Shown piece by piece: positions 30,331-57,533 of a stretch of 64,000 nt of DNA. Source of the stretch: Candidatus Eiseniibacteriota bacterium. Lineage in GTDB: Bacteria; Eisenbacteria; RBG-16-71-46. Below the pieces are notes generated by a model. It was not told the DNA's origin. It saw nothing but the letters and a program-made list of their open reading frames with translations, and ran no database searches. A program made the translations under genes and the position numbers. Within the stretch, counting starts at the first letter, position 1. The number at the start of each line of letters is the position of its first letter. The DNA is taken from positions 20 to 64,019 of the forward strand of contig JAWOLC010000052.1 of assembly GCA_033853925.1 (NCBI GenBank). The letters are read 5' to 3'.

Positions 30331-30622
30331 GGCCTGGCGCCCCGTGCGCCGCGGGCACGGAGATCGCTGCCGCAGCGACCTCGGCCGCGTGAGCCCGAAC
30401 GCCCTGCCTCGCCGCCACGAGGCGCGGCCCACCACTGCGAGACGCTGGGCTCGCGGGTTGCGCTTCGAGGCGACCGACATCCGGCTGGGGTAAGATATCG
30501 TCGTGCGTGACTGCGGGCCCGAGGCTCGGGGGATCGCCGTGCCTCACGCCCGGTTCCAGCGCTGGGCGCGCCTCTGGATCGTCCCGGCCGACCAGGGGGA
30601 GCGGAGGAGAGCGGAGAGGAAG

Positions 30623-42603: not shown

Positions 42604-44661
42604 ATGCCGATCGCCAAGCGCTCCTGGACTCCGTCCCTGCTCGTCCTGCTGGGCCTCGCTTCCCTGGCCGCGCGGGCGCTGCCGCCGGGCCTGCGCGAGG
42701 TGGCCTTCTATCCGGCGCTCGGGCTCTTCCCCGGCTTGCTCGTCGCCGAGCTGCTGGCGGGCCGCGAGCGGGAGTTCGATCGCTGGATCCTGGGGCTGGC
42801 CCTCTCGCCGCTCGTCGCCGCCCTCGCCGGAATCGGATTGTGCCGGCTCGGAGTGAGCCTGGCAGTGGGCACCTCGCTCATCGCCGGCGTGAGCTTCGGC
42901 GGCTGTCTGATCGCCCAGGTCGGGCGCCGGCTCCGGCGCCCCTCTTCCTCCGAGTTCCCCGAGCGACGAAGCTGGCAGTGGCTCGGCTGGGCTCTGGGGT
43001 TCGCCGGCGTGCTCGCCCTGCTCCCGATCGTCAATCCGTGGCTGCTCGTCCGCGCCGACTCGTGGTTCCACGCCGGCATGGTCTGGGAGATCGTGAGGCG
43101 CGGCATCCCCCCGGAGACGCCGAGCGTGGCCGGCCCTCCCGCCAACTACATGTGGACCTACAACTTCTTTCTCGCCCAGTCCACGAGCCGGGGGTGCGAT
43201 CCGTTCGTGCTGATGGCGGTCCTGAACGTGGTGTCCGGCTTCCTCCTCGTCGCCATCGTGCGGCGCCTGGCGTTGCTGGCGTGGCGCAGCGAGCAGGCGG
43301 CCACCGGGGCCGCCGCCTTGGCTCTCGTGGGCCTCGACGCCGGCACCTGGCTGCTCTGGCCCCTGAGCCCGCTGCGGGCCCTGACGGGACAGGTGCGGGG
43401 CGGGGCGGAGCTGACCCGGCAGCTCCACAACGTCCACCTCCTCGATGCGGGCGTGCTCTACTTCGTCGCCGCGCCCTTCTCGTCCGTCGCGAGCCTCATC
43501 GACAAGCTCACGGAGGGTACGGCGCTCGGCTACGCCTGGATCCTCCTGCTGCTCCTCCTGTGGAGCGCGCTGGCCTGGCTCGAGCAGGGGCGCAGGAGAA
43601 CCCTGGGCGTGGCGGCCCTGGCGACCCTCGGGCTCTTCTTCCTCCACGCCGTGGTCGCCCTCTCGGTCGTGCCGGTGATGCTCGTGACGCTGGCGGCGAT
43701 CTGGCTGCTGCGCGGCAGACAGACGTGGCTCCCGCCCAGGGGACGTGTGCTCTCCCTCCTGCTCGCGGTCGCCGTCGGGGCGGGACTGGGGATGCCCTAC
43801 CTCTGGTCGGTCATGCGGGCGTGGACGCGCGCGGACTCCGGTCCGCGCTTCCACTACCTCCCCCCCGACGCCTTCATGCTCTGGACCTTGCTGACGACCG
43901 TGGGAGTCGTGGGCTGGCTGGCCTGGCGGCCGGCGCTGCGCTCGTTCCGCGAGCGGCTCGCTCTCCCCGCCGTGGTGACGGCCTTCGCCCTCTTCATGAC
44001 GCTCTACGCCCTGGCCGTGCGGCTGCCCGTGCCGACCGACACGAAGCTCGTCGTCCAGGTCTTCTTCCCGCTCGCGCTCCTGGCCGGCGCCGGCTTCCTC
44101 CCGGGCGTGGCCCGGCTCGCCGCACGGCGGGGGCGCGGCTTCGCCGCCGCGGTGCTGGCTCTGGTGTTCGGCGTGGGCCCGCTCCTGACCGTGATCGGCT
44201 TCGCCGCGGATCCGAGCCGGGGGAGCGACCCGCACTTCCTCGAGACGCCGGCGGAGCGCCGCCTCGACGCGTGGGTCCGGGAGCGCACCCCGGTGGACGC
44301 CGTGCTCCTCGACGGGGGCTTCCGCAATCTCCTCACCGTCCGCGGGCAGCGGCGGCAGTACCTGGCCTCGGGTTACGAGCCTTTCGTCCTCGGCTTCCCC
44401 GCGGCGGAGCTGGCGCTGCGAACGGCCGTCATGCAGGATCTCTACGGCCCGGGCGCCGATCTTGCCGCGGACGCGGAGAAGCTCCGCGCGCTGGGAGCGC
44501 CGGTCTTCGTCGTGTACCGCCCCGAGGATCGCCGGGGTCCGCGGACCCCGTGGTCGGGGCCCGCGGGCCGCGGGGATCTCTACACGCCGGTCTACGCCGC
44601 CGACGGCTTCCACGTCTTCCGCGTGCGGGAGACGGCCGGAGCCCTCCCGCCCGCGGAATAA
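42604..44661 (+). CDS. Polytopic membrane protein, uncharacterised family (paralog B of 39543..41573)
   Basis: ORF 42604..44661; collinear with paralog A, including IVNPWLLVRADSWFHAGMVWEIVRRGIPPETP. Confidence 0.75.
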   Translation: MPIAKRSWTPSLLVLLGLASLAARALPPGLREVAFYPALGLFPGLLVAELLAGREREFDRWILGLALSPLVAALAGIGLCRLGVSLAVGTSLIAGVSFGGCLIAQVGRRLRRPSSSEFPERRSWQWLGWALGFAGVLALLPIVNPWLLVRADSWFHAGMVWEIVRRGIPPETPSVAGPPANYMWTYNFFLAQSTSRGCDPFVLMAVLNVVSGFLLVAIVRRLALLAWRSEQAATGAAALALVGLDAGTWLLWPLSPLRALTGQVRGGAELTRQLHNVHLLDAGVLYFVAAPFSSVASLIDKLTEGTALGYAWILLLLLLWSALAWLEQGRRRTLGVAALATLGLFFLHAVVALSVVPVMLVTLAAIWLLRGRQTWLPPRGRVLSLLLAVAVGAGLGMPYLWSVMRAWTRADSGPRFHYLPPDAFMLWTLLTTVGVVGWLAWRPALRSFRERLALPAVVTAFALFMTLYALAVRLPVPTDTKLVVQVFFPLALLAGAGFLPGVARLAARRGRGFAAAVLALVFGVGPLLTVIGFAADPSRGSDPHFLETPAERRLDAWVRERTPVDAVLLDGGFRNLLTVRGQRRQYLASGYEPFVLGFPAAELALRTAVMQDLYGPGADLAADAEKLRALGAPVFVVYRPEDRRGPRTPWSGPAGRGDLYTPVYAADGFHVFRVRETAGALPPAE

Positions 44662-44667: not shown

Positions 44668-46851
44668 TCAGGGCGTGCCCACCTTGCCGGCCGCGGCGCC
44701 CGTGGGCTTCGCCGGGGCCGGCTGGCGCCAGCTCACGCCCAGCTCGGCGAACAGGAACGAGTAGACGTCCGCGTTCAGCTCGTTGCGCGCCTTGAGCGGC
44801 GTGCCGATGTGGCCGGTGCCCTTCTCGGCGCGGAGCAGGACGGGCAAGCCGGAGGTGCTCGCCGCCTGGAGCCGTGCGGTCATCTTCCGCGAGTGCATCG
44901 GGTTCACGCGCGGGTCGTTCGAGCCGGTCGTGAACAGGACCGCCGGGTACTTCGTGCCGTCCACGACGTGATGATAGGGCGAGTAGGCGTAGAGGGCGGC
45001 GAATTGCACGGAGTCCTTCACGCTGCCGTACTCGGTCGTGTTGAAGAGGCCGTTCGACTCCAGCTCGCTCCTCAGCATGTCGTAGACGCCCACGCTCGAC
45101 ACCACCGCCCGGAAGGCGTCGGGGTGCTGAGTGATCATGGCCCCCATCAGGATGCCGCCGTTGCTCCCCCCCTGGCAGGCGAGCCTCGCCGGCGAGGTGT
45201 AGTGGTGATCCACCAGCCAGCGGGCGCAGGCGTAGAAGTCGTCGAAGACGTTCTGCTTCTTCGTCAGCATGCCGCCCTCGTGCCAGGCGTCGCCGAACTC
45301 GCCTCCGCCGCGGATGTGCGCGACGGCGTAGATGCCACCCTGGTCGAACCACACCCGCCGCGTGGCCACGAACGACGGACGCTGGCTGATCGCGTAGCCG
45401 CCGTACCCGTAGAGCAGCGTCGGGGCCGTTCCGTCCAGGCGCGTTCCCTTGCGCATGAGGATCGTGAGGGGGACGCGGGTGCCGTCCTTCGAGACGGCCG
45501 TGGCCCGCTGCACCTCGATGTCCGCGTAGCTCACCGGGGAGCGGCGGACGAGGGCGGTCGTCCCCACGGTCTTCCGCGCCGGGTCGTAGGTCACCCAGCG
45601 AGGCGGCTCCGTCCAGCGGGTGATGCCCAGCGCGACCTTGCCGCCGCCGGTCGGCACCATGCCGCCGACCGTGGTCTGCTCGGGCAGCGGCACCGTGCCC
45701 CTCGCCTGGCCGTCGCTCGTGAAGATCCGGACCTGGGAGGGGCCGCCGAGGATCTCCTCCACGTAGAGCAGGTCCTCCGAGGGCGTGAACCACTCGATGC
45801 CCGCCTGCCCCTCGGGGACCAGCACGGCGGCCTGGCTCAGCCCCTCGGCGGGCAGCGGAAGCCGCAGCACCTTCCCGTTCGGGGCGTCCATGCGCGACAG
45901 GAGGTAGAGGACCCCGGGACCGAAGCCGGCGTCCACCACGCGATCGGCGAAGGTCGAGAGCGGGTGGAACACGCCGTCGGCCTGCGACGCCAGCCACATC
46001 ATGTGGTCGCCGCCGTCGCCGTTCAGCACGTCGGCCAGCACCCACTTCCCGTCCTTCGAGGACGAGAGCTTGATCTCCGCGATCTTCGGGAACTCCTTCC
46101 CCACGGCGTAGGTGTCCGAGGCTTCCGGAGTGCCCAGGCGGTGGAAGTACACCTGCTGGTAGAAGGGCAGGTCCTCGTCGGGCCGCTCGCCGGGTGCCGG
46201 ATAGCGCGTCCGCCAGTACCCCGTCCCGTCGGCGTTCCACGCCAGGCTGCCACCGGCCGTGCCGCCATTCGTGCGCGGCACCTCGTCGCTCAGCTTCCGC
46301 CCCGTCGCCACTTCCCAGACGTGCACCGTGCCCGACTCGGTGCCGCCCTTGGAGAGCGAGACGGCGACCTTCGCCCCGTCGCGCGAGGGCACGTAGAAGT
46401 CGATGGTCGTGGCGCCGCTCGGGTCGATCGCGTTCGGGTCCACGAGCACCTTCTCCCCCGTCGGTCGCACGAGCGAGCGCAGGGTCACGAGGACGGGCTG
46501 CTGCTTGGGCGGATCGTCCTTGAGCGCGAAGTAGATGCCGCCCGCGCGCTCCACGGCGAACCAGCCGGGCGTGGGCTTCTCGGTGATGGACTCCACCTGG
46601 CGCAGAACGGCGGCGCGCATGGGCAGGCTGTCCAGGAAGGCCCGCGCCACGGCGCTCTCCGAATCGCTCCAGGCCGGCACCGCCGGATCGTGCCAGTCCT
46701 CGAGCCAGCGGTAGTCATCGGTGACCGTCACGCCCCAGTAGTGGTCCTCCACCGGGCGCTTCGGAGTGAGCGGCAGGGGCGGCCCGGCGACAGCCACCAA
46801 CGTGAGGGAGGCGATTGCCGCAGCCGCGGCGAAGATCGTCCACATGCGCAT
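44668..46851 (-). CDS. Prolyl oligopeptidase (S9A family serine peptidase), secreted
   Basis: 727 aa from MRMWTIFAAAAAIASLTLVAVA (signal peptide; AAGGAGA SD) of ORF 44668..46941; catalytic GGSNGG motif and C-terminal alpha/beta hydrolase. Confidence 0.85.
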   Translation of the reverse strand: MRMWTIFAAAAAIASLTLVAVAGPPLPLTPKRPVEDHYWGVTVTDDYRWLEDWHDPAVPAWSDSESAVARAFLDSLPMRAAVLRQVESITEKPTPGWFAVERAGGIYFALKDDPPKQQPVLVTLRSLVRPTGEKVLVDPNAIDPSGATTIDFYVPSRDGAKVAVSLSKGGTESGTVHVWEVATGRKLSDEVPRTNGGTAGGSLAWNADGTGYWRTRYPAPGERPDEDLPFYQQVYFHRLGTPEASDTYAVGKEFPKIAEIKLSSSKDGKWVLADVLNGDGGDHMMWLASQADGVFHPLSTFADRVVDAGFGPGVLYLLSRMDAPNGKVLRLPLPAEGLSQAAVLVPEGQAGIEWFTPSEDLLYVEEILGGPSQVRIFTSDGQARGTVPLPEQTTVGGMVPTGGGKVALGITRWTEPPRWVTYDPARKTVGTTALVRRSPVSYADIEVQRATAVSKDGTRVPLTILMRKGTRLDGTAPTLLYGYGGYAISQRPSFVATRRVWFDQGGIYAVAHIRGGGEFGDAWHEGGMLTKKQNVFDDFYACARWLVDHHYTSPARLACQGGSNGGILMGAMITQHPDAFRAVVSSVGVYDMLRSELESNGLFNTTEYGSVKDSVQFAALYAYSPYHHVVDGTKYPAVLFTTGSNDPRVNPMHSRKMTARLQAASTSGLPVLLRAEKGTGHIGTPLKARNELNADVYSFLFAELGVSWRQPAPAKPTGAAAGKVGTP

Positions 46852-47258
46852 CAGCACTTCTCCTTCTCGCGGGCCGGAGGGTCCGCGGCCCAAGAGGGAC
46901 GTAGCGGCGCGCGTTCGCGCCGCGGCGCGGTCGGCGACCACCGGGGTCGCCAGCCGAAGCGCTCCAGGTCGATCCTACCTCGGGCGTCGAACCTCACGCC
47001 CTCGCCTTCGAGCCGGAGACGCTGGGTGACGTCGTCGCCGCGCCCGGGGGGCAGGCTGATCCCGCCGCGCGCATTGACGACACGGTGCCAGGGAGCGTAG
47101 CTCGCCTGCGGCAGCGCGTGAAGGGCGTAGCCCACCTGCCGGGCGTGCCCCTCCAGCCCGGCCAGCCTGGCCACCTGCCCGTACGTCGCGACGCGTCCCC
47201 GCGGGATCCGGCGGACGACGGCGTAGACGCGCTCCCACCGGCTCGGTGCGCGCTGCAC
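46851..47258 (-). CDS. Alkyltransferase-like (ATL) protein - MGMT DNA-binding domain with Trp replacing the active-site Cys
   Basis: ORF 46851..47315; motif PWHRVV instead of PCHRV; probable GTG start at 47258 after GAAGGGGA; TGATG overlap with the oligopeptidase start. Confidence 0.65.
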   Translation of the reverse strand: MQRAPSRWERVYAVVRRIPRGRVATYGQVARLAGLEGHARQVGYALHALPQASYAPWHRVVNARGGISLPPGRGDDVTQRLRLEGEGVRFDARGRIDLERFGWRPRWSPTAPRRERAPLRPSWAADPPAREKEKC

Positions 47259-47302
47259 GCTTCCCCTTCGCGCCTCCGGCGGCCGAGTCCGCCCCCCGCC
47301 GC

Positions 47303-48412
47303 TCAGCGCGCCCATCTCTCGAGAACCCCCTCGAGGCGTGGGCGCACCCGCTCCCAGGCGAATCCCTCGGCGGTGCGGCGGGCGCCGGCGCCCAGCCTGC
47401 AGGCGAGATCCGGTCGCGAGAGCACGCGGGCCAGCGCCTCCCGCAGGGCGGCGGGGTCGCCGGGAGGCACGAGCAGCCCGTTCACCCCGTCCACGATCAG
47501 CTCACGCACGCCGGCGACCGGCGTGCCGATCACGGGCCGCCCCCACGACATGGCCTCGAGGAGCACGTTGGGCAGGCCTTCGCCGCTGCGCGCCGCGAGC
47601 ACGACACAGGCCGCGCCGGCGTACAGGGCGCCCAGCCCGGGGCGGCCCACGAAGCCCGCGAATTCCACGCTCGCCGACCGCCGACGGGCCAGCTCCTCCA
47701 GCCGGCTCCGTTCCGGTCCTGTTCCGGCGATGATCAGCCGACGGCTCTGCCCGGCGGCCGCCTCGATCGCCACGTCCATGCCCTTGTCGCGAATGAGTCG
47801 CCCCACCGCCAGCACCGGGCCCGTGGCCACGTCCGCCGCGGGCAGGGGCGGGTCGGGCAGGTCGAGCCCGTTCGGCACCACGTCGAGGTGGGAGTCCACT
47901 TCGGCGCGCGCCCACGGCGCGTACCGCTCCAACTCCCGCAGCAGCGCCTCGCGCCCCGCAGAGGTCTGGACGAGCACGCCGCGGGCCGCTCTCCAGGTCC
48001 GGCAATTGAGGGCGCCCTTCAGCCCGGCTTCCCCCAGACGATACTCACCCTCCCCGCGGATCCAGACGATCGCGGGAACGCCCAGCCGCCGCTGCGCCCG
48101 CACGCCCACCCAGCCACTGATGAACGACTGGAAGCAGACCAGCAGGTCCGGCCGTGGCTGCAGGGCGTCCAGCGCTCGGCCCGTGCGGTGCGCGTCGACC
48201 AGAGCCCGCAGGCCCCGGGCCGGGAACAAGGGCAGGCGAATCACCTCGTAGCCGTCCCGCGCCTCGCGCCCGGGCGGGGCCGGAGGCTCCTGCCGCGTGA
48301 TCACGACCACCCGGTGGCGATCGCTCAGACGGCGCGCCCACCCCTCGGCCTGGTGCTCCGCTCCTCCCTGGGGTCCGGGAGGAAACCGGCCGACCAGGAA
48401 GGCGAGGTTCAC
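47303..48412 (-). CDS. Glycosyltransferase family 4
   Basis: C-terminal part of ORF 47303..48745 from GTG 48412 (M-NLAFLVGRFPP); GTGA overlap with the asnB-like stop. Confidence 0.8.
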   Translation of the reverse strand: MNLAFLVGRFPPGPQGGAEHQAEGWARRLSDRHRVVVITRQEPPAPPGREARDGYEVIRLPLFPARGLRALVDAHRTGRALDALQPRPDLLVCFQSFISGWVGVRAQRRLGVPAIVWIRGEGEYRLGEAGLKGALNCRTWRAARGVLVQTSAGREALLRELERYAPWARAEVDSHLDVVPNGLDLPDPPLPAADVATGPVLAVGRLIRDKGMDVAIEAAAGQSRRLIIAGTGPERSRLEELARRRSASVEFAGFVGRPGLGALYAGAACVVLAARSGEGLPNVLLEAMSWGRPVIGTPVAGVRELIVDGVNGLLVPPGDPAALREALARVLSRPDLACRLGAGARRTAEGFAWERVRPRLEGVLERWAR

Positions 48413-50328
48413 GACGGCTCGCTCGGCCGCAGCGAGGCCAGCGGCGCCCCCAGCTCTTCTCGCGGCCGGTCCAGGTAGGTCCGGGCCCACAGCTCGAGGC
48501 AGACCAGCACCCAGGTCTGACGCGTGCGGCGCTCGTCCCTGGAGCCGCTGTCGCCGAGCTGCCGCTCGATCGCGGCCGTGTCCAGCCAGCCCCGGCGCCG
48601 GGTGACGGGATCCAGGAGCACCTCCCGCGCCAGCCGCGAGAAGCCGCCCCCGAACCAGTGCACGAGCGGCACGCCGAAGCCCTGCTTGCCGCGGGCCACG
48701 ATCTCCGGGGGCAGCAGCGGGCGGGCACACTCGCGCAGGATCCACTTGCCCACGTTCCCCCGCAGCTTAAGGTGGAAGGGAATGCGCGCCGCGAACTCCT
48801 GCAGCGGATGGTCGAGGAGCGGCTCGCGCGATTCCAGCGAGTGGATCATCGTCGTCCGGTCCACCTTGGCCATCACGTCGTCGACCAGGTAGGTCTGAGC
48901 GTCCAGGGGCAGGAGGGCGGGAATCTCCCCGAGACCCGCCGCCGCCGCGCGGTGGATCGCTCGCGGCGTGGCCCCCGCGTCGTAGTCGGCGACGGCCGCC
49001 CGCAGCTCCGGCGTCAGCATCGCCGCCAGCTCGAGGGGCGGGAAGGTGGCCTCGACGTGCAGGTGCCGCGCGCCGACATCCATCGCCACGCGCCGGAGCT
49101 TGCGCCCCAGCGGGTGATCGGGATGCATCCAGCCGGCCGGCCGTGCCAAGCCCCGGCGCAGGGCCGCCGGGAGGAAGTCCAGAGCCGCGTAACGCCGGGC
49201 CCACGCGTAGGTGGAGTAGCCGCCGAACGTCTCGTCGCCACCATCGCCCGAGAGGCTCACGGTGACGTGCCGCCTGGCCATCTGCGCCAGGTAGTACATG
49301 GGGATCATCGAGGCGTCGGCGTGCGGCTCGTCCATCTGCCAGATCAGGGTCGGCAGGAGCTCGAGGGCGTGCGCCTTCACGACCAGCTCGTGGTGCTCCG
49401 TGCCGAGGTGCCGCGCCACCTGCCGGGCGTGCTCGACCTCGGTGAAGTCCTCCTCCTCGAAGCCGATGGTGAAGGTCTTCACCCGCTCCGGGGCCACCTG
49501 CTGCATGAGCGCGACGACCACGCTGGAATCCAGGCCGCCGGAGAGAAACGCCCCCAGGGGAACGTCGGAGTGCAGGCGCAGGCGCACGGCCTCCCGGAGC
49601 AGGCTCGTGAGGCGCTCGCGATACCAGTCCTCGGGATGGCCGGCGTCCACTTCCGTGGGGAGCTGCCAGTAGCGCTCCAGCCGCGCCCCGTTCGCGTCGC
49701 AGATCAGCCGGTGGGCTGCCGGCAGCTTGCGCACGCCGCGCCAGATCGTGCGGGGCTGCGCCACGTACTGGTACGAGAGGTAGTCGGCCACGGCACACTC
49801 GTCGATCTCCCGCGGGATCGAGGGGTCCAGCATCAGGCCCTTGAGCTCCGAGGCGAAGACGAGGCGCCGCCCGTCGTCGTGATAGTAGAGGGGCTTCACC
49901 CCGAAGCGGTCTCGCCCGAGCACCAGCCGCCGCCGCCGGCGATCGAAGAGGCCGAAGGCGAACATGCCGCGCAGGCGGCTGAACATCTCGTCGCCGTACT
50001 CCTCGTAGAGGTGGAGCAGAGCCTCGGTGTCGCTCGTCCCCCGCAGGCGGTGGCCGCGAGCCACCAACCCGGGAGCGAGGTCGGGCCAGTCGTACAGCTC
50101 GCCGCTGTAGACGACCCAGACGCTCTCGTCCTCGTTGGCCATGGGCTGGCTCCCCGTCGGGCTCAGGTCGAGGATGGCCAGCCGCCGATGGGCGAAGGCC
50201 ACGTCCCCGTCCACCCACGTTCCCGCGCCGTCCGGACCGCGGTGCCGCATGGCCCACGCCTGCCGCTCGAGCAGAACGGAGTCGGCCGCCCCACCCCCAT
50301 AGTGGAAGACTCCGCTAATCCCGCACAC
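48409..50328 (-). CDS. Asparagine synthetase B-family glutamine amidotransferase (exosortase/EPS-locus-associated type)
   Basis: ORF 48409..50328; MCGISG N-terminal nucleophile Cys; SGGLDSS PP-loop. Confidence 0.9.
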   Translation of the reverse strand: MCGISGVFHYGGGAADSVLLERQAWAMRHRGPDGAGTWVDGDVAFAHRRLAILDLSPTGSQPMANEDESVWVVYSGELYDWPDLAPGLVARGHRLRGTSDTEALLHLYEEYGDEMFSRLRGMFAFGLFDRRRRRLVLGRDRFGVKPLYYHDDGRRLVFASELKGLMLDPSIPREIDECAVADYLSYQYVAQPRTIWRGVRKLPAAHRLICDANGARLERYWQLPTEVDAGHPEDWYRERLTSLLREAVRLRLHSDVPLGAFLSGGLDSSVVVALMQQVAPERVKTFTIGFEEEDFTEVEHARQVARHLGTEHHELVVKAHALELLPTLIWQMDEPHADASMIPMYYLAQMARRHVTVSLSGDGGDETFGGYSTYAWARRYAALDFLPAALRRGLARPAGWMHPDHPLGRKLRRVAMDVGARHLHVEATFPPLELAAMLTPELRAAVADYDAGATPRAIHRAAAAGLGEIPALLPLDAQTYLVDDVMAKVDRTTMIHSLESREPLLDHPLQEFAARIPFHLKLRGNVGKWILRECARPLLPPEIVARGKQGFGVPLVHWFGGGFSRLAREVLLDPVTRRRGWLDTAAIERQLGDSGSRDERRTRQTWVLVCLELWARTYLDRPREELGAPLASLRPSEPS

Positions 50329-52894
50329 GTGCCGCCTCCGCCGCCGCCACGCTCCCTCGCGGCGCCAGGAGCCGCAGGCTGCCCACGGCCCTCCCCGCGA
50401 AGTAGTCCTGGTCGAAGAAGTAGTCCGAGAGCCTGAAGTTCGCGAAGACCGGCGAGCGGATCATGCGCACGCGCACGACGTACTCGCCGGGAGCCACGTC
50501 CCTGGGCACCGCCACCGAGAACTCGTCACGCACGACCTGGTCGGGCCGCCAGAGATCCACCCCGTAGATCCCTCCCACGGGGAGATGGTCGTCCCGGAAG
50601 CGCAGGCGCTCGTGGAGCCGCCTCTCCAGCAGCTTCCGCCAGGGCTTCCCCAGGAACGCGGGAGGACTCCAGCCCGCGGGCAGGGGGCGGTCGAAGCGCA
50701 CGGCCACGGTGTAGGAGCCCGGCGGCATCGGCCCCGGCGCGCGCCAGTCCACGGCGCAGCGAAGCGTGTCGCCGGGCCGAGCCCGCTCGGGACGGAGCGC
50801 GAAGCCCACGATGGCCGGAAGAGCCGCGGAGCGAGACTCCGGCGCCAGCGCGTCTCCCGCCGTCACCGGCCGCACGAAGGGCCGCGGCGCCGGTGGACTG
50901 GCCAGCCGGTCCAGCCCGCGCGGGCGCACGCGGTAGACGACCACGCCGCGCAGGTCCGCCAGGCGCTCGAAGGCCCCGGGGGCCGAGTCCAGGCGCGCGC
51001 GCTCGGCGGCGTACCACGAGCGAGTCGGGGTCCAGTACAGGAGCGGGGCGGCATCGCCCAGCCGGCCGTCGAGCACGATCACGCTCACGCCGTACCGCCC
51101 GATCACGTCGCGCATCCGCGCCCACGGCTCGTAGGGGTCGAGCGCGTCGCGCGTGTCCAGGATCCGCCGCAGGGCCAGCGAGTCGTTCGGCGAGCTGTGC
51201 TGGTCCACGATGGCGACGACGTATCGCCCCGTCATCATGGGCACCATGTACGACGTGGCCAGGTCCGAGAGCACGACGTCGTCGGGCGGCAGGTGGGCGT
51301 TCATCCACGCGAAGACGTCCCCCCAGCGCCGGGGATCGTACTCGCGCCTGGCCTGCTGGAGCGGCTCGGGGGCCAGGAGCACCGTGGCCGCATCGCGCGC
51401 GGGCGCGGCGAGCAGCACCACCGCGAGCGCCAGCACCACGCCCGCCGCCGCGCGCCGCGCCCACGGGCCGGTCGCGGCCACGCGCGCGGCCAGCTCGGGC
51501 AGCAGCCAGCCGAGAATGCCCGCGAGGGGCACGAGCCAGATCAGCCGCATCAGCAGGTAGCCCAGGCGAGGCTGGAGCAGGGCGACGACCGGCGGGTCGT
51601 ACATGATCAGGCCCACGGCCAGGGAGGAGGTCAGCAGGTAGAGCACGGCGGGGTTGTGCCTCCCGCGCGCCCACAGCCATGGCCAGGCGAGCGGCACCAG
51701 CACCCAGGCCTCGCCCATGTGGGTCCAGAGCGCTCCGATCGTGACCACTCGCAGGGTTCCGACCAGGGTCAGCAGCCCCTGCGGCTCCGTATGGATGATG
51801 TTCGTGGGCGCGTACGCCTGTCCGGCGCGCATGACGACGTAGGGCAGGCATGCCGCGGCCATCAGCAGGACCGTGGGAACGAGCCGGCGCAGGTCGGGGC
51901 CGACCCGCCGGTCCCGCAGCAGGAGGCCGAGCGCGAGCGCCGAGAACACCACCGCGAAGTGAACGGCCGCGAACACGTGCGTCGCCACGGCCGCGAAGCC
52001 GAGGATCGCCGCCGAGACGCGCGTCCCGCGGGCGCGCATCCGGAGGTCTGCCAGGACCGCGACCACGGCCGCCAGCGCGAGCTGATCGCCGAAGTGGGAG
52101 GCGAAGGCCATCTGGCGCAGCTCCTCGGACCACAGGCCTCCGCCGAAGGTGAGGAGGAGCGCCCACGCGGCCAGTCCGGCGCCGATCGGCCCGCGGCAGA
52201 GGTACCCCAGCCCGGCCACGGTGAGCACGAAGAAGGGCACGATGAAGCTCCCGAGCCAACGCCAGGACTCGAGCGGGTCCACGGCCGCGAGCCGCGTGAT
52301 CAGCGCGATGACGACGTGCCAGACTCCCTTGCGCGGGTCGGCGCCCATGCGGCCCGCGTCACGGAAGAACGCGTCGGTGGGAAACGCCTGGCCGGTGAGC
52401 AGCATGCGCCGCAGCGTGCCCACGTGGTCGGGCGTGTCGGTGCCGTATCCCGTCGGCGGGCCGATGCTCCCCGCGGTCCAGGCCGCCACGCCCGCCGCCA
52501 GCAGCACGGCCAGCACGGCCCAGCGAGGCAGCGTGGGCGCCCCGTCCGGCCAGGGGACGCGCCCGCGCCAGACCACGACGCCCCAGAGCGCGGCGTTGGC
52601 CGGGAGCATCCAGAGCGTCAGGGGCAGGAAGCTCGGGACGAGCGTGTGCGCCAGCAAGGCCAGCGCCGAGGCCCAGGCCACCCCGAAGCCGAGCGCCCAG
52701 CCGGCGGCCAGCCAGGATCCTCCCGGCGGCCGGGCTCCCAGGGCGACGAAGGCCCAGCCGGGAACCAGGACGAGCACGCCGAAGGCCAGCGCCACCCGCA
52801 CGGGACCCGGCAGGGCGGCTCCCGCCCCCGCCAGCAGAGCGGCGTGGAACGCCAGGCTGGCGAGGCCAAGAGCCAGCGCTCGCGCTCGGGTCAT
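50315..52894 (-). CDS. Large polytopic membrane protein with C-terminal periplasmic domain (paralog C, distant from A/B)
   Basis: 860 aa from MTRARALALGLASLAF of ORF 50315..53053; DTPDHVGTLRRMLLTGQAFPTD aligns with the D-x-W-x-H-x-G...G-x-P-x-D motif of A/B; ATGA overlap with the upstream stop. Confidence 0.7.
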   Translation of the reverse strand: MTRARALALGLASLAFHAALLAGAGAALPGPVRVALAFGVLVLVPGWAFVALGARPPGGSWLAAGWALGFGVAWASALALLAHTLVPSFLPLTLWMLPANAALWGVVVWRGRVPWPDGAPTLPRWAVLAVLLAAGVAAWTAGSIGPPTGYGTDTPDHVGTLRRMLLTGQAFPTDAFFRDAGRMGADPRKGVWHVVIALITRLAAVDPLESWRWLGSFIVPFFVLTVAGLGYLCRGPIGAGLAAWALLLTFGGGLWSEELRQMAFASHFGDQLALAAVVAVLADLRMRARGTRVSAAILGFAAVATHVFAAVHFAVVFSALALGLLLRDRRVGPDLRRLVPTVLLMAAACLPYVVMRAGQAYAPTNIIHTEPQGLLTLVGTLRVVTIGALWTHMGEAWVLVPLAWPWLWARGRHNPAVLYLLTSSLAVGLIMYDPPVVALLQPRLGYLLMRLIWLVPLAGILGWLLPELAARVAATGPWARRAAAGVVLALAVVLLAAPARDAATVLLAPEPLQQARREYDPRRWGDVFAWMNAHLPPDDVVLSDLATSYMVPMMTGRYVVAIVDQHSSPNDSLALRRILDTRDALDPYEPWARMRDVIGRYGVSVIVLDGRLGDAAPLLYWTPTRSWYAAERARLDSAPGAFERLADLRGVVVYRVRPRGLDRLASPPAPRPFVRPVTAGDALAPESRSAALPAIVGFALRPERARPGDTLRCAVDWRAPGPMPPGSYTVAVRFDRPLPAGWSPPAFLGKPWRKLLERRLHERLRFRDDHLPVGGIYGVDLWRPDQVVRDEFSVAVPRDVAPGEYVVRVRMIRSPVFANFRLSDYFFDQDYFAGRAVGSLRLLAPRGSVAAAEAARVRD

Positions 52895-53622
52895 GCGCGG
52901 ATCTCCGGCGGCCGCGGCCGCACGGGAGCCGGAGGCTCGTCCGCCCCGCGGGGTCGAGCCTGGGCCAGCCACTGGAAGGCCATGAGGTCGGGAAGTGAGG
53001 CGCAGGCCAGCCGGTTCAGGGCCCGATCCATGGCCCCCAGGCGCAGCCGGCACAGGACGCGGTCGAGCCGGCAGGGCTGCAGGCTGAAGGTCAGCTCCAA
53101 GATGCGAAAGCCGCCACCCTCCAGCAGGGCCGAGAAGCTCCGCCGGGTGAAGAAGCGCAGGTGGGTCCGATCCAGGATGCCGTATTCCTCGTAGTCGAAG
53201 CGGCCGCGCAGCAGCGCCCGGCGAATCGTGTGATGCGCCACGTTGGGGATCGACACCAGCAGCCGTCCCTCCGGCGCCAAAGCCGCGCGACAGCGCGCCA
53301 GGACGGCTTCGGGCTCGCGCAGGTGCTCGAGCACGTCGGCGAGGATCGCCACGTCGAAGGGGGGCACGACGTCCGTCCAGAGCCGCTCGTCCTCCACGTC
53401 TCCCACGAGCACGGCTTCACAGAACGGCGCCGCGTGCGCGGCGGCGGTGGGGCTCCGCTCGACGCCCGTGACCCGGCAGGCTCGCCTCTCCCGCAGCACC
53501 CGGCTCATGTAGCCCGTGGCGCAGCCGATCTCGAGCACCCGCGTGCCCGCGGGCGTCCAGTCGACGAGCACGCGCTTGTTCGCCTCCAGCTCGTCGCGCC
53601 AGGGGTAGACCTTGTCTCTCAT
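52891..53622 (-). CDS. Class I SAM-dependent methyltransferase
   Basis: 243 aa from MRDKVYPW (AGGGAGG SD) of ORF 52891..53676; VLEIGCATGYM motif. Confidence 0.75.
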   Translation of the reverse strand: MRDKVYPWRDELEANKRVLVDWTPAGTRVLEIGCATGYMSRVLRERRACRVTGVERSPTAAAHAAPFCEAVLVGDVEDERLWTDVVPPFDVAILADVLEHLREPEAVLARCRAALAPEGRLLVSIPNVAHHTIRRALLRGRFDYEEYGILDRTHLRFFTRRSFSALLEGGGFRILELTFSLQPCRLDRVLCRLRLGAMDRALNRLACASLPDLMAFQWLAQARPRGADEPPAPVRPRPPEIRA

Positions 53623-54599
53623 GACGCCGCCGCCTCCCTGCCGCGCGCCTCGGGAGACACGAGCATCCGCAGGCATCTGCGCATCAGGCGAAGGACGTGC
53701 GCGGTCCGGGCCCGGCGGGGCGGGGCGAAGGGCGCCAGCAGCGCGTTGCGGAGGAGCGACAGCCCGAGGCTCGCCAGGAGCGCCAGCTTCAGCAGCGCAC
53801 CCGCCGGCCCCGTGAACGTCAGGTCCCAGAACACGCCGATCGAGCGCAGGCTGAGCAGGGAATTCGTCTCGACGTCCAGCTCACGGCTCGTGCCCCCCAG
53901 ATGCACCACCTCGGCCGCCGGCTCGTAGCGCAACGTGAGGCCATGACGCCGTGCGCGAAGGCTCCACTCCACGTCATCGTAGTTGAGCACCAGCCGCTCG
54001 TCGAGCAGCCCGACCCGGGCCAACGCCTCGCGGCGGAAGAGGATGCAGGCTCCCGACAGCACGTCCGGCACGCCCGGCTGCTCGTACCACCGCCGCGGGT
54101 AGGTGCCGCGCACGAAGGGGAGCAGGGCCGGCACCAGGGCGGGGAGCTGGGTGTGGCCGAGGAGCGAGGGCAGGAAGCGCGGCGCCCGGCGAGCGCAGAC
54201 CCACTGCGTGGAGCCGTCCGCGTGGAGGAGACGGGGGCCCACCGCTGCGGCCGACGGCTCGCCCTCCAGCCGGCGGACGAGCGCCCCGAGCGCGTCGCCG
54301 CGGAGCAGCGCGTCCGAGTTGAGCGCCAGCACGTAATGCCCGCGGGCCTCGCGGAGACCCTGGTTGCACGCGGGCGCGTAGCCGCGGTTCTCGCCGTTCA
54401 CGACGAGGCGCGCCGCGGGCCAGCGCTCCGCCACGCGCCGCGCCGAGCCATCGCTCGACGCGTTGTCGATCACGAGCAGCTCGCGCGCTATCTCCGGCGA
54501 GCTGGCGAGCGCGTCCTCCAGGCAGCGCACCAGCAGGTCGCGCGTGTTGAAGCTCACGACCACGATGCTGACGAGGGGCGCGCCGCTGGCCTCAGGCAT
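53619..54599 (-). CDS. Glycosyltransferase family 2
   Basis: ORF 53619..54599; VSIVVVSFNTRD, DNASSDGS and DxD region. Confidence 0.8.
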   Translation of the reverse strand: MPEASGAPLVSIVVVSFNTRDLLVRCLEDALASSPEIARELLVIDNASSDGSARRVAERWPAARLVVNGENRGYAPACNQGLREARGHYVLALNSDALLRGDALGALVRRLEGEPSAAAVGPRLLHADGSTQWVCARRAPRFLPSLLGHTQLPALVPALLPFVRGTYPRRWYEQPGVPDVLSGACILFRREALARVGLLDERLVLNYDDVEWSLRARRHGLTLRYEPAAEVVHLGGTSRELDVETNSLLSLRSIGVFWDLTFTGPAGALLKLALLASLGLSLLRNALLAPFAPPRRARTAHVLRLMRRCLRMLVSPEARGREAAAS

Positions 54600-56064
54600 C
54601 CGAGCCGCCTCCGGCGGGCTGCAGCCGCGCCAGCAGGACCTCGCGAATCCGCTCGATCTCGCGGCGGGTGATGGAGGTCAGCGCCCAGGCGAGGGCGATC
54701 GCGATGCCCACGAGGCGCAGGCGCAGATCGGGGAACGGCAGGGAGGCGACGGCCACGACCGCCACCGTGCTCGAGAGCAGCAGCCGCGTGTTCTCCGCCG
54801 TGAAGCGGAAGCCGTTCACCCGGCGCAGGTAGACCACCATCATGACGAAGGCCACCGCCCACGAGACCGTGTGCCCCCAGATGGCTCCCTGCAGGCGGGC
54901 CGCCGCCGGCACGCCGAAGAAGATCCCCGCGAACACCCCGTACTGGACGAGCGACATCACGTTGCGCGCGCGGAAGCGCTCCTGGGGAAGCATGGGGAGC
55001 TGGACCGCGAAGACCACGGCCTTGACGAGGTCGCCGACCATCTGCACGGGAAACAGCGCCGCCGCGTCCAGGAATCGGCTCGAGTACAGCACCCGGATCA
55101 TCACGTCCCGCGACAGGAGGAGCGCGAGGATGCCGGCCGTGGAGAAGAGGAGCGCCACGCGCGTAGCGTTGTTGACCTCCTGATTGATGGCCCCGAGCTC
55201 GCGGAGCTGGCTGATGCGGGGGAACGAGTACGCGGTCATCGCGTTCAGGGGAATGGCCAGGTACTGGGTGGAGACGGCGAAGAGCACCTGGTAGATCCCG
55301 TTCCGGGTCAGGCCCAGGTCGTGGACGATCTGGGCGCGCAGCACGAAGGGGAACATCAGGGTGAGGACGAACGGCGGCAGGTTCGCGTAGCCGAAGCGGA
55401 AGAGGCTGGTGATGGCCGGGCGGTCGAAGGGGGCTTCGTCCACGGCCCGCCTCATCTCGTGCCCCATCGCTCGGTCGGCGGTCCAGCGGGCGACGGCCCA
55501 GGCCAGGATGGCGAAGACGAAGAGGTGGATCGTGGCTCCCTTGAGCCCCCAGGCGAGCACCAGCGGAGCCAGAACGGCGAGCCCCAGCACCGAGGTCAGC
55601 ACCAGAGCCCGCGAGTAGGCGCGCATGTCGAGCCCGGCCTGCACGTAGGTCAGCCAGGTCTGGCTCTGCACCAGGAAGGGAATGCCCAGGATGGGCGGGA
55701 TGAGCAGGACCAGGTAGGCCGGCGAGTTCGTGGCCCACAGGGTGATCGGTCGGATGAAGAGCAGGCAGAGCGCCGTCGCCCCCACGGACAGCCACAGGAA
55801 GGTGCGTGCCGAGGTGGCCACGAAGCGGGCCTGCCGGTTCGGATCCCCGGTGCGATAGAGGGCGAAGTAGCGCAGCGCCCCGGTCTGCAGCCCGAGGGGC
55901 ACGATCCCGGCGGCCACGGTCTGCAAGCCGAAGAGCTGCGCGAACAGACCGATGCCCGTGGGCCCGAGGGTCACCGCCAGCAGCTTGTTGCGGAGAACCG
56001 ACACCCCCGTGTTCGCGACGGAGGAGAGGCCGATCAGGAAGACCGAGCGAACGAGCGCCCTCAT
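54592..56064 (-). CDS. Wzx-type flippase (polysaccharide biosynthesis protein, MOP superfamily)
   Basis: 490 aa from MRALVRSVFLIGLSSVANTG (GGGAGA SD) of ORF 54592..56241; about 12 transmembrane helices. Confidence 0.8.
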   Translation of the reverse strand: MRALVRSVFLIGLSSVANTGVSVLRNKLLAVTLGPTGIGLFAQLFGLQTVAAGIVPLGLQTGALRYFALYRTGDPNRQARFVATSARTFLWLSVGATALCLLFIRPITLWATNSPAYLVLLIPPILGIPFLVQSQTWLTYVQAGLDMRAYSRALVLTSVLGLAVLAPLVLAWGLKGATIHLFVFAILAWAVARWTADRAMGHEMRRAVDEAPFDRPAITSLFRFGYANLPPFVLTLMFPFVLRAQIVHDLGLTRNGIYQVLFAVSTQYLAIPLNAMTAYSFPRISQLRELGAINQEVNNATRVALLFSTAGILALLLSRDVMIRVLYSSRFLDAAALFPVQMVGDLVKAVVFAVQLPMLPQERFRARNVMSLVQYGVFAGIFFGVPAAARLQGAIWGHTVSWAVAFVMMVVYLRRVNGFRFTAENTRLLLSSTVAVVAVASLPFPDLRLRLVGIAIALAWALTSITRREIERIREVLLARLQPAGGGSDA

Positions 56065-57533
56065 GCCGTCTCCCGGGGCGCCGTCCACAGCGTGGCGACC
56101 TTGTCCAGGCCGGCGCCGCGGCCCAGCCAGGCCAGCACGGGGAGCGCCAGCAGGATCACTGCGGCCGACCGGACCAGAGCCGCCAGCACCGGCCGCGGCG
56201 GCCCCAGCTCGCAGGCCACGAACGCCGCCGCGCCGAGCCACAGCGTGGGCAGGAAGCTCGAGGCGGCGAAGGACAGGCGCGCGCGCGGCGCCGCATGGAG
56301 GTCACGCGCCGCGAGCGCCACGATGACCACCGCGAACAGTCCGTAGCCCGCGCAGGCCGCGGCGGCGACCGGGAAGGGCCGGGGCGCGCGCGCGGCCACG
56401 CCGAACACGACGGCGGCGGCGAGGGCGGCGCACAGGACGCCGGCCGCGAGCAGGGCGCGGGCGTGTCCCCGCCCCAGCAGCCAGTAGCCCGGCAGCGTGG
56501 CCGCCGAGAGCAGCAGGGCGGCCATCGCCAGCAGCCGGACGGACCTCGCGGCCGTCACGAACTGCGGCAGGAACAGCTCCAGCACGGGCGTCACCCAGAT
56601 CATGGACACCGCCACGGCCACGGGCAGCAGCAGGGACAGGGTCCGTTGCGCGCGCGTCACCTCGTGCCGGGTCCGCTCCAGATCGCGAGCCCCGTCCGCG
56701 GCCGCCACGATGCGGGGATAGAGGACCGCCGCCGCGGCCTCGGGCAGGTAGAACACGAGCCCCGCCGCCATGAGGCCCACGCTGTAGGCACCCAGGTCTT
56801 CCGGATGGCCGAAGCGGATGAGGGCGAGCCGATCCACGGAGCGGAGGACGAGCGACACCCCGTAGAAGGCGAACACCACGAATCCCCCGCGCACCAGCGC
56901 CCGCGAGCGGGCCAGCGCGCCGAGCCGGAAGGGCACGTCGGGGGCCGCGCGGCGCACCCAGACCAGGGCCACGGCCGTGCCCGCGAGCCAGCCCCACAAG
57001 AGCCCCGGGATCCCGAAGCGGTGCACGAGCGCGATCCCCAGCGCCCCTCCCACCAGGACCTGGGCGGCGGTCGAGCCGCTGACCGCATCGAATCGGCCGC
57101 GCGCGCGCAGGACCGAGCCGACGTACTGCAGCACGAGCTGGAGGAGCCCGGCTGCGAGCATGAGGAGCGGCGCCTGCCAGCCGAGCCCGCGCAGGATCCG
57201 GGGGTGCCCGTTCGCCAGCATGACGATCACGGCGAGCGCGAAGAGGGCCCCACCCCCCACCACCATGTTCCAGGTCCCCGCCAGGAGCCGCCGCGATTCC
57301 TGGGCCTCACCTCGCGCGCTGGTCGCGGGCAGGCGGAGATCCAGCCCCTGCAGGGCCCCGCAGGGAGCGTACGCGCTGTAGTCCAGGATCAGGTTCAGCG
57401 CGTTCCAGCTCCCGAAGCCCGCGGGTCCGAGCGTGGCCGCCGCCACCACACCCCGAGCGAGCAGCATCGCCCGCGAGACGTACTGGCTCGCGGCCAGCCC
57501 CAGCATGTCGCGGACGAAACGGCGCCCCGTCAC
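56061..57533 (-). CDS. MOP-superfamily polysaccharide flippase (Wzx-like), second copy
   Basis: ORF 56061..57533; about 12-14 transmembrane helices; ATGA overlap with the downstream gene. Confidence 0.7.
   Translation of the reverse strand: MTGRRFVRDMLGLAASQYVSRAMLLARGVVAAATLGPAGFGSWNALNLILDYSAYAPCGALQGLDLRLPATSARGEAQESRRLLAGTWNMVVGGGALFALAVIVMLANGHPRILRGLGWQAPLLMLAAGLLQLVLQYVGSVLRARGRFDAVSGSTAAQVLVGGALGIALVHRFGIPGLLWGWLAGTAVALVWVRRAAPDVPFRLGALARSRALVRGGFVVFAFYGVSLVLRSVDRLALIRFGHPEDLGAYSVGLMAAGLVFYLPEAAAAVLYPRIVAAADGARDLERTRHEVTRAQRTLSLLLPVAVAVSMIWVTPVLELFLPQFVTAARSVRLLAMAALLLSAATLPGYWLLGRGHARALLAAGVLCAALAAAVVFGVAARAPRPFPVAAAACAGYGLFAVVIVALAARDLHAAPRARLSFAASSFLPTLWLGAAAFVACELGPPRPVLAALVRSAAVILLALPVLAWLGRGAGLDKVATLWTAPRETA

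Follow-up and report, generated by a model that had tools for sequence, protein, structure and literature searches.

A predicted GT-C-fold membrane glycosyltransferase with an Ig-like extension in an envelope-glycan locus of Candidatus Eisenbacteria

Gene C encodes a large membrane protein with a predicted GT-C fold in a stretch of 64,000 nucleotides from a Candidatus Eiseniibacteriota bacterium, referred to below as the window. With a probability of about 0.65, the modelled protein is a periplasm-facing GT-C(A) glycosyltransferase that uses polyprenyl-phosphate-sugar donors and acts on a surface glycan. Its active site would face the periplasm within a bundle of about 15 helices and would be formed by the loop D153-x-P-D156-H157...G168...P172-x-D174 after helix 5 together with D270, H306, the 363-373 loop and R450. 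The C-terminus forms an Ig-like beta-sandwich (residues 666-859 with linker and tail), whose probable task is to hold the glycan acceptor or to measure it.

Gene C and its junctions

50315 to 52894 including the stop codon, minus strand: gene C, predicted GT-C-fold membrane glycosyltransferase (open reading frame and translation)
52891 to 53676, minus strand: SAM-dependent methyltransferase (Methyltransf_23), translationally coupled and upstream of C
48409 to 50328, minus strand: AsnB-type amidotransferase, with the XrtA/PEP-CTERM amidotransferase as top NCBIfam match, below cut-off

The open reading frame of gene C is real and occupies the frame with high GC3 (0.92-0.97, approximately, in a coding-frame check). 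The product has 859 amino acids plus a stop, one residue fewer than the 860 given in the original prediction. The ATG at 52894 (context gcgcATGAcc) encodes the same start Met as in the homologs and overlaps the TGA of the upstream methyltransferase gene, in agreement with the coupling that had been proposed for these two genes. An ATGA junction had also been proposed between C and the amidotransferase gene, but here the genes overlap by 14 nucleotides at the 3' end of C, with a GTG start for AsnB at 50328 (V-C-G-I-S-G). Met-Cys is the usual N-terminus of class II amidotransferases.

Relationship to paralogs A and B

39543 to 41573, plus strand: paralog A, 676 amino acids, same superfamily, without the beta-sandwich
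42604 to 44661, plus strand: paralog B, 685 amino acids, 41% identical to A, weak DUF6541 match

A and B are close paralogs (41% identity, BLASTP E 5e-122) and are encoded on the strand opposite to C at a distance of 6-11 kb. Pairwise comparison does not link C to them significantly (BLASTP E 0.068 for A and 0.17 for B), and a BLASTP search with C against all open reading frames of the window gave nothing significant. When a 66-sequence alignment of the C family was compared with a 51-sequence alignment of the A/B family in hhalign, the two matched with 98.8% probability and E 5.3e-17 over 585 collinear columns (E 3.3e-17 in a local repeat). The match extends over residues 31-668 of C and 21-678 of A/B and covers all of A/B. 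Four composition controls all gave E values of at least 0.025: the reversed A/B alignment reached 0.3% (E 0.22) against C, and three unrelated multi-helix families of the same loci reached at most 2% (E at least 0.025). Judged from these profiles, C is genuinely related to A and B, but very remotely, with kinship at the level of a superfamily. The three proteins had been placed in one membrane-protein family from a short loop motif. The alignment over 585 columns reaches far past that motif, and the placement is therefore upheld.

Outside the conserved positions the C and A/B families share only about 21% identity. The family-conserved residues that align (C/A-B numbering) are P45/P40, G46/G41, D153/D151, H157/H155, G168/G166, P172/P169, D174/D171, G181/G176, D270/D300, H306/H348, P351/P397 and R450/K480 in the membrane part and W530/W556, P569/P598 and D583/D611 in the soluble domain.

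The presence of three copies at the locus, from which three specificities had been proposed, is not the general arrangement: in most related genomes C is accompanied by a single A-type copy. In some, a third A-like subfamily is encoded immediately upstream of C. It is reasonable to suppose that A, B and C may each have their own substrate or acceptor specificity.

Domain layout and conserved residues

52526 to 52894, minus strand: four N-terminal membrane helices, residues 1-123 (DSSP of the model, hydropathy, loop charges)
52277 to 52525, minus strand: fifth membrane helix and external loop, residues 124-206, putative EL1-like catalytic loop
52373 to 52438, minus strand: DTPDH...G..P.D motif, residues 153-174, with candidate catalytic Asp153 and with Asp156, His157 and Asp174
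51374 to 52276, minus strand: about ten remaining membrane helices, residues 207-507 (model, hydropathy, conservation)
50900 to 51373, minus strand: alpha/beta domain common to A, B and C, residues 508-665 (hhalign, secondary structure, end of DUF6541)
50318 to 50899, minus strand: C-specific extension, residues 666-859, absent from A and B (separate AF2 model)

The part common to A, B and C consists of the membrane domain of about 15 helices and an alpha/beta domain of about 155 amino acids, and it ends at residue ~665 of C. The N-terminal helices carry P45-G46, which is invariant in both families. The motif-bearing segment 124-206 has the highest mean column conservation of all segments in C (0.74), with short helices at 154-167, 181-184 and 192-203 in the DSSP assignment of the model. 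The motif itself reads DTPDHVGTLRRMLLTGQAFPTD in C, and its counterparts are DAWIHGGIVWDIVRHGIPPED in A and DSWFHAGMVWEIVRRGIPPET in B. As had been predicted, the motif aligns with the loop motif of the paralogs: D153, H157, G168, P172 and D174 pair with D151, H155, G166, P169 and D171, which are invariant or near-invariant in the A/B family. Among the 66 C-family sequences D153, P155, D156, H157, G168 and P172 are invariant. D153, accompanied by D156 and D174, belongs to a long loop with two to three short helices after helix 5, and this loop may be the equivalent of the catalytic EL1 loop. The following helices (207-507) contain the conserved D270, H306, P351, a loop at 363-373 (P-x-N-x-x-H-x-x-x-Q-G) and R450.

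The residues that do not vary in either family are acidic, His or basic. When the positive-inside rule is applied to the loop charges, all of them would be on the periplasmic side, and the loop in 124-206 would likewise be periplasmic.

Similarity to GT-C enzymes

The AF2 model of C has a pLDDT of 93.3 and a pTM of 0.92. In a Foldseek search of this model against the PDB, every match with E ≤ 1e-3 (25 of 25) is a GT-C enzyme with probability 1.00. The matches range from E 3e-9 to 1e-3 and include DPY19 (7zlg, E 3e-9), STT3/OST (8pn9, E 4e-9), AglB (3wak), PglB (3rce), AftA (8if8), ArnT (5ezm) and Pmt4 (9i5k). Target-length-normalised TM scores reach 0.5-0.55 in the best matches and lie at 0.32-0.49 in the rest. 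With TM scores of 0.38-0.55 and an rmsd of 8-13 Å the similarity is moderate. The predicted structure is superimposable on solved GT-C enzymes and has a multi-helix GT-C fold.

None of the known GT-C family models in Pfam and NCBIfam matches C. A PMT_2-type GT-C family that is also encoded in the window gives 0.6% against C and 0.2% against A/B in hhalign, and when PDB sequences were searched with the C and A/B profiles, nothing but chance matches appeared (E > 1). The GT-C assignment is therefore drawn entirely from the predicted structure and Foldseek.

The last helix of C leads into a soluble alpha/beta domain, as in DPY19, OST and the arabinosyltransferases, and this domain at 508-665 may be periplasmic and may match the 'luminal dome' described for these enzymes (PMC10154233). 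The long external loop with an invariant acidic residue may be another feature that C has in common with GT-C(A) enzymes. STT3, DPY19, ArnT, PMT and AftA are members of this class, and in canonical GT-C enzymes the motif loop comes after the first helix. In C the loop follows helix 5 and not helix 1, and the model suggests four extra N-terminal helices relative to GT-C(A) enzymes. C also differs from the solved enzymes in that it has no sequence-level similarity to them and carries an additional Ig-like domain.

The two top fold matches, DPY19 and STT3/OST, followed by AglB and PglB, could indicate that C glycosylates secreted or surface proteins, either like OST by en-bloc transfer of a polyprenyl-diphosphate glycan or like DPY19 and PMT with a single sugar on a side chain. 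However, AftA, which acts on a glycan, and ArnT, which acts on a lipid, score nearly as well. The Pfam models for STT3, PMT and DPY19 have no match in C, and WWD[YWF]G is absent from the 66 C-family and 51 A/B-family sequences, with no WW at all in C. Without the WWDYG motif, C was rejected as an STT3-family oligosaccharyltransferase. The locus also has relatives of the XrtA/PEP-CTERM type (a FemAB-like protein, a DUF3473 deacetylase and the amidotransferase), a system for which a role with glycosylated proteins has been suggested. But every one of these matches is below the NCBIfam cut-off (218 bits against 276 for TIGR03006, 230 against 260 for TIGR03019 and 564 against 817 for TIGR03108) and no exosortase was found among the window genes scanned, so a true XrtA/PEP-CTERM locus was rejected. 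The conserved neighbours of C are polysaccharide genes, which also argues against protein substrates, and a protein glycosyltransferase is an unlikely identity for C.

The C-specific extension

Beyond its last membrane helix C has a soluble region of about 350 amino acids (508-859), the first ~155 of which are shared with A and B. The original prediction had described a C-terminal soluble domain of roughly 300 amino acids unique to C. A C-specific extension does exist, but it comprises only about 195 amino acids (666-859). Modelled alone it has an AF2 pLDDT of 88, and its column conservation is 0.68. The predicted layout is a linker, an Ig-like beta-sandwich at 693-845 and a disordered tail. 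A conserved basic helix, 746-760 (K-P-x-R-K-L-x-E), is inserted in the sandwich.

The best PDB matches of the extension in Foldseek are the carbohydrate-binding domains of Wzt (6o14, 8dky, 7k2t, 5hnp), an O-antigen ABC transporter. The similarity is modest, with E 5e-5 to 7e-4, a target-length-normalised TM of 0.48-0.54 and 10-15% identity. Further matches are an AlkC Ig-like domain, a GH3 FnIII-like domain, NPC2, CARDB, protein 4.2 and arrestin-like proteins, and a match to NPCBM_assoc/NEW3 is sub-threshold. Non-glycan Ig-like domains (AlkC, NPC2, protein 4.2 and arrestin-like) match the extension equally well, and the matches of the sandwich are to generic Ig-like folds. The fold prediction that had been recommended as a check thus gave an Ig-like beta-sandwich, and the carbohydrate binding that had been asked about is suggested only by the modest Wzt-type matches.

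Wzt carbohydrate-binding domains recognise the capped end of the O-antigen. C might then be a polysaccharide polymerase, a ligase or a factor for chain length or export (Wzy-, WaaL- or Wzz-like) in which the sandwich reads the chain terminus as in Wzt. Of the large membrane proteins at the locus, C is the one conserved most widely, and a methyltransferase gene is coupled directly upstream of it in the window and in one other locus (L049). But the methyltransferase is missing from nearly all other loci, and a conserved pairing with C was rejected for that reason. The fold of C matches GT-C(A) enzymes and not Wzy, WaaL or RodA-type proteins, a separate Wzy_C protein (35604 to 37052) and Wzx-type flippases are present in the window, and the Wzt match is modest (TM about 0.4-0.55). 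A role in polymerisation or export is accordingly quite improbable, more so than one in protein glycosylation.

A more speculative combination, to which we give still less weight, is that C, A, B and DUF6541 form an undescribed GT-C family with four extra helices, in which the Wzt-like sandwich of C reads a modification at the polymer end and ties glycosylation to chain termination or length. The terminal mark could be, for example, a methyl cap from the coupled methyltransferase. If such a sandwich-guided GT-C enzyme were real, Eisenbacteria and Krumholzibacteriota would have a lineage-wide enzyme for building the envelope, and its way of choosing an acceptor would be one that has not been described among GT-C enzymes.

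DUF6541 and the distribution of homologs

Homologs of C are numerous: 238 are full length with 48-63% identity. The family is conserved across Eisenbacteria and reaches Krumholzibacteriota with 25-29% identity. A GC content of 73% had suggested that the DNA comes from an actinomycete, but this was rejected, because the named C homologs and 80 genomic loci belong to Candidatus Eisenbacteria. A profile search with the family gave 1380 clusters at 50% identity. In a cluster look-up of ten distant members, the only entries were 'hypothetical protein' or no name.

The Pfam family DUF6541 (PF20176) is an integral membrane family with a model length of 646 and a gathering cut-off of 29 bits. Orthologs of C score 24.4-34.9 bits with residues ~41-665 on model positions 1-645/646, and two of the six tested reach the cut-off. 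A more distant relative of C (P0220) scores 50 bits, and B has a partial match of 21.1 bits. For A there is no reportable score. The Pfam and NCBIfam scans gave no match for the C protein of the window itself, and DUF6541 was not matched in Pfam even at E ≤ 5. Several C orthologs match the whole model, which ends where the part common to A, B and C ends (residue ~665 in the C homologs), and C differs by the addition of the beta-sandwich of ~195 amino acids. Literature searches found no mention of DUF6541 and no papers on Eisenbacteria and exopolysaccharide.

The GT-C reading of C provides a functional hypothesis for this large set of 'hypothetical' membrane proteins (1380 clusters), extending to DUF6541, and sketches an envelope-glycan locus that is conserved in Candidatus Eisenbacteria. 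This phylum is not known to have a cultured member. D153, D270, H157, H306 and R450 can be targeted directly by mutagenesis.

Neighbouring genes and proposed function

60378 to 61088, minus strand: short GT2, 236 amino acids, candidate polyprenyl-phosphate-sugar synthase and proposed donor maker
59979 to 60368, minus strand: DUF2304 small membrane protein (GacJ/Rv3632 family), partner of the short GT2 (Pfam 83 bits, cut-off 25.5)
58975 to 59982, minus strand: flippase-like membrane protein (LPG_synthase_TM/TIGR00374), ATG overlapping the DUF2304 stop

The gene order Phosphodiesterase - Wzx - short GT2 - DUF2304 - flippase-like - DegT - U490 - C - AsnB - GT4 is repeated in dozens of Eisenbacteria species, and the AsnB-type amidotransferase follows C in 32 of 49 loci. 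The short GT2 is 69-82% identical across Eisenbacteria loci. Its top NCBIfam matches are PpgS (1.8e-27), AglJ, Dol-P-hexose transferase and ArnC, all far below cut-off (PpgS 96 bits against 370), and its PDB matches are DPMS (5mlz, 7e-13) and ArnC.

The least probable of the readings considered is that C is a non-catalytic scaffold or transporter with a retained GT-C-like fold: activity has been shown for no member of the C family or DUF6541, but C has an invariant Asp/His/Arg cluster in external loops that is common to families only ~21% identical, and the C family is consistently linked with the polyprenyl-phosphate-sugar synthase module.

Two-step modification of periplasmic glycans occurs in ArnC/ArnT, GtrB/GtrA/Gtr-type and CsbB/YfhO systems. 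It has also been described for GacI/GacJ/GacL of Streptococcus pyogenes (bioRxiv 10.1101/180810) and PpgS/Rv3632/Rv3779 of Mycobacterium tuberculosis (PMC3485146). The DUF2304 proteins GacJ and Rv3632 stimulate polyprenyl-phosphate-sugar synthases, and the products of such synthases feed the GT-C enzymes GacL and Rv3779 (bioRxiv 10.1101/180810, PMC3485146). The locus of C resembles the GacI/GacJ/GacL and PpgS/Rv3632/Rv3779 systems in having a short GT2, a DUF2304 partner, a flippase-like protein and GT-C-fold transferases, and it appears to hold a complete module for making, flipping and transferring a lipid-linked sugar.

For C as a periplasmic glycosyltransferase, the short GT2 and its DUF2304 partner would load the sugar onto polyprenyl phosphate in the cytoplasm and the lipid-linked sugar would be flipped across the membrane. 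C, working at the inner membrane's outer face, would then pass the sugar to the surface polysaccharide of the surrounding Wzx/Wzy-type locus. A and B might catalyse comparable steps that differ in the donor or in the acceptor position. The scheme has the same logic as GacIJKL, PpgS/Rv3779 and ArnC/ArnT and brings no conceptual surprise, and C is therefore of use as an annotation but does not represent a new kind of system.

Unlike the two-step systems, the locus has the synthase module and C several genes apart, and C is without detectable sequence kinship to any of the GT-C enzymes of those systems. The short GT2 is encoded on the strand of C and about 7.5 kb upstream of it, and the genes between them include the divergent DegT, so the two are not in the same operon. 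The window contains five GT-C-fold candidates and several GT2s, which makes the pairing of donors and enzymes ambiguous. In Krumholzibacteriota a different short GT2 is located upstream of the C-like gene in all eight loci (8/8), and it resembles the 221-amino-acid GT2 of the window (37034 to 37699) with 27-31% identity.

Delimitation of gene C

Gene C is a real gene in a densely coding window with a G+C content of ~73 %. Its reading frame has its stop end at 50315 on the minus strand and two possible starts, GTG 53053 and ATG 52894. The ATG (gcgcATGAcc) shares bases with the stop codon of 52891..53676, the gene upstream and a Methyltransf_23 SAM methyltransferase by domain match. The full-length homologs of C share this start methionine. 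C therefore spans 50315..52894 and encodes 859 amino acids, in agreement with the start chosen in the original prediction. The ATGA coupling claimed for both sides holds at the methyltransferase junction only: the AsnB-type amidotransferase directly downstream starts at GTG 50328 (V-C-G-I-S-G) and therefore overlaps C by 14 nt with no ATGA coupling.

Relationship to A and B

The motif DTPDHVGTLRRMLLTGQAFPTD occupies residues 153-174 of C. A regular-expression scan of all ORFs in the window found similar strings in two further membrane proteins:

39543..41573, plus strand: A, 676 amino acids, DAWIHGGIVWDIVRHGIPPED
42604..44661, plus strand: B, 685 amino acids, DSWFHAGMVWEIVRRGIPPET

A and B are clearly paralogous to each other (41 % identity, E 5e-122), whereas BLASTP detects no similarity of C to A (E 0.068) or B (E 0.17). 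Homologs were gathered for C (238) and A/B (60), and 66 and 51 of them, respectively, were aligned. Comparison of the two alignments with hhalign gave a probability of 98.8 % (E 5.3e-17) over 585 collinear columns, matching C 31-668 to A/B 21-678, which is the entire A/B protein. The coinciding family-invariant residues, in C numbering, are P45-G46, D153, H157, G168, P172, D174, G181, D270, H306, P351, R450 (Lys in A/B), W530, P569 and D583.

The C alignment against the reversed A/B alignment gave 0.3 % (E 0.22). Either alignment against the Wzx, flippase-like and U490 (a 490-residue membrane protein) families of the same loci gave at most 2 % (E >= 0.025), and the window's PMT_2-type GT-C family gave 0.6 % (E 0.092) with C and 0.2 % (E 0.31) with A/B. 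These controls exclude shared GC-rich membrane-protein composition as the source of the match. The match and the negative controls together therefore show that the similarity extends far beyond the short motif. As judged from sequence profiles, C, A and B are one superfamily with C as its remote branch, so the proposal that C is a third member of the A/B family was correct, though the kinship is distant.

Predicted fold and domain architecture

The AlphaFold2 model of C, built on the C-family alignment, has a pLDDT of 93.3 and a pTM of 0.92 and is divided as follows:

residues up to 507: membrane helices
residues 508-665: alpha/beta domain
between the alpha/beta domain and the beta-sandwich: linker
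residues 693-845: beta-sandwich
past the beta-sandwich: disordered tail

The hhalign match to A/B stops at ~665, and Pfam DUF6541 covers residues 41-665 in C orthologs (model 1-645 of 646, 24-35 bits with a cut-off of 29). Because both end there, the C-specific part is ~195 amino acids and not the ~300 first assumed; the first ~155 amino acids of the soluble region are common to A and B. Column conservation in the C family peaks in the segment of helix 5 and the following loop with the motif (0.74); the alpha/beta domain, at 0.71, and the beta-sandwich, at 0.68, are highly conserved as well.

Hydropathy and loop charges predict ~15 helices with the N-terminus inside and the C-terminus outside. 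D153, D156, H157, D174, D270, H306, the 363-373 loop and R450 would then all be periplasmic. The position of the motif loop after helix 5 suggests that four N-terminal helices have been added to the canonical GT-C core.

In a Foldseek search of the PDB, the 25 chains found at E <= 1e-3 are all GT-C glycosyltransferases, including the C-mannosyltransferase DPY19 (3e-9), STT3 of OST complexes, AglB, PglB, AftA, ArnT and Pmt4, and the best matches have TM-scores of 0.5-0.55 when normalised by target length. PMC10154233 describes DPY19 as having 13 helices, two long luminal loops, a catalytic Glu located in EL1 and, at the C-terminus, a 'luminal dome' that OSTs and arabinosyltransferases share. 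C resembles it in general elements: an invariant acidic residue lies in a long loop predicted to be external, and the last helix is followed by a soluble alpha/beta domain (508-665) that is a candidate counterpart of the dome. None of the sequence methods used (Pfam, NCBIfam, PDB-sequence profile search, hhalign) links C to known GT-C families.

The top fold matches modify proteins, and C might accordingly be a protein glycosyltransferase. However, the oligosaccharyltransferase motif WWDYG is found in none of the 117 aligned sequences of the C and A/B families, and GT-Cs that modify glycans and lipids score nearly as high. The most fitting description of C is an uncharacterised protein related to DUF6541, predicted from its model to be a GT-C-fold glycosyltransferase to which an Ig-like domain has been added, and encoded in an envelope-glycan locus that is conserved in Eisenbacteria.

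The C-terminal beta-sandwich

Modelled by itself, the extension is an Ig-like beta-sandwich (pLDDT 88) with an inserted conserved basic helix, K750-P-x-R-K-x-x-E757. The O-antigen transporter Wzt gives the best PDB matches, through its carbohydrate-binding domain (E 5e-5 to 7e-4, TM ~0.5). Next come the AlkC Ig-like domain, the FnIII-like domain of GH3 glucosidases, NPC2 and CARDB; an NPCBM_assoc/NEW3 match is below threshold. The carbohydrate binding suggested in the original prediction is plausible on this modelled fold.

A polymerase or a reader of chain ends would also fit the Wzt-like domain and the methyltransferase coupled to C. This is less convincing because the window already has a Wzy_C protein, C belongs to the GT-C(A) fold class, and conservation of the methyltransferase is lacking: it precedes C in the window and in one other locus (L049) only.

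Distribution and synteny

An exhaustive profile search with the C family gave 1380 clusters (50 % identity) at E <= 1e-3 and 306 at E <= 1e-30, many matching over the full 845 residues; none of the clusters examined has a name. Species-representative genomes contain 80 C loci, nearly all in Candidatus Eisenbacteria MAGs (44-58 % identity). Candidatus Krumholzibacteriota has full-length relatives (25-29 % identity), and in 8/8 of these loci the C-like gene has upstream of it another short GT2, one with 27-31 % identity to the 221-residue GT2 of the window (37034..37699). Close homologs (46-54 % identity) also occur in MAGs labelled Limnocylindria, Binatia, Saccharimonadaceae, Verrucomicrobiia, Udaeobacter or Acidiferrales (L004, L009, L034, L045, L052, L066); their synteny is of the Eisenbacteria type, and the contigs were probably binned or labelled wrongly.

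A tblastn survey with the proteins of the window shows a syntenic arrangement of phosphodiesterase, Wzx, short GT2, DUF2304, flippase-like protein, DegT (opposite strand), U490, variable genes, C, AsnB and GT4, with deacetylase, A, hexapeptide acetyltransferase and FemAB-like protein farther along. DegT is upstream in 36/36 loci, and AsnB comes after C in 32/49. U490 (56061..57533, minus strand, with a weak Polysacc_synt_3 match only) is kept just upstream of C in 23/44 loci, often as two divergent copies in tandem.

In 7 to 13 loci the gene next to the C homolog on its upstream side belongs to a third A-like subfamily (~677 amino acids, SDGWFH...GVPPED, 26-33 % identical to A/B), for example L009 (5905..7938, plus strand) and also L005, L006, L012, L013, L027, L042, L044, L053, L055, L059 and L067. 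It is absent from the position directly upstream of C in the window. The view that three copies are the usual state of the locus also needs correction.

Proposed donor module and function

Three genes form a conserved module:

60378..61088, minus strand: short GT2, best matches to polyprenyl-phosphate glycosyl synthases
59979..60368, minus strand: DUF2304 protein (GacJ/Rv3632 family, 83 bits), next gene past the short GT2
58975..59982, minus strand: flippase-like LPG_synthase_TM protein, its ATG overlapping the DUF2304 stop

Among Eisenbacteria species the short GT2 keeps 69-82 % identity. It matches PpgS (1.8e-27), AglJ, Dol-P-hexose transferase and ArnC in NCBIfam, all far below the family cut-offs, and DPMS (5mlz) and ArnC in the PDB. 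The DUF2304 proteins GacJ and Rv3632 stimulate GacI and PpgS, and the GT-C proteins GacL and Rv3779 decorate cell-wall polysaccharides with the lipid-linked sugars from GacI and PpgS (bioRxiv 10.1101/180810; PMC3485146).

By analogy, C is proposed to take a sugar from a polyprenyl-phosphate donor and add it to a surface glycan at the periplasmic face. D153 would probably serve as catalytic base or metal ligand, phosphate binding would fall to R450 and H306, and the beta-sandwich would hold the acceptor; A and B would perform the same reaction with other specificities. A non-catalytic role is hard to reconcile with invariant polar residues common to very divergent families.

Besides A, B and C, the window encodes two PMT_2 (GT39/GT83-like) GT-C-type membrane proteins and therefore has five GT-C-fold candidates:

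30539..32092, plus strand: PMT_2 protein
26160..27695, minus strand: PMT_2 protein

Other genes in the window

The FemAB-like protein (38043..39008, plus strand), the DUF3473 polysaccharide deacetylase (41570..42433, plus strand) and AsnB (48409..50328, minus strand) each have an XrtA/PEP-CTERM-system family as best NCBIfam match, 3/3 below the curated cut-offs; an exosortase was not found in the window. No Pfam match was obtained for two predicted proteins (~373 and ~334 amino acids) encoded at 20102..22330 (minus strand), where the locus is rich in glycosyltransferases. The two halves of the glycan locus are separated by 44668..47315 (minus strand), which holds two genes:

44668..46941, minus strand: S9 prolyl oligopeptidase
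46851..47315, minus strand: O6-methylguanine-DNA-methyltransferase-like gene

Other genomes have glycosyltransferases instead at the corresponding position.
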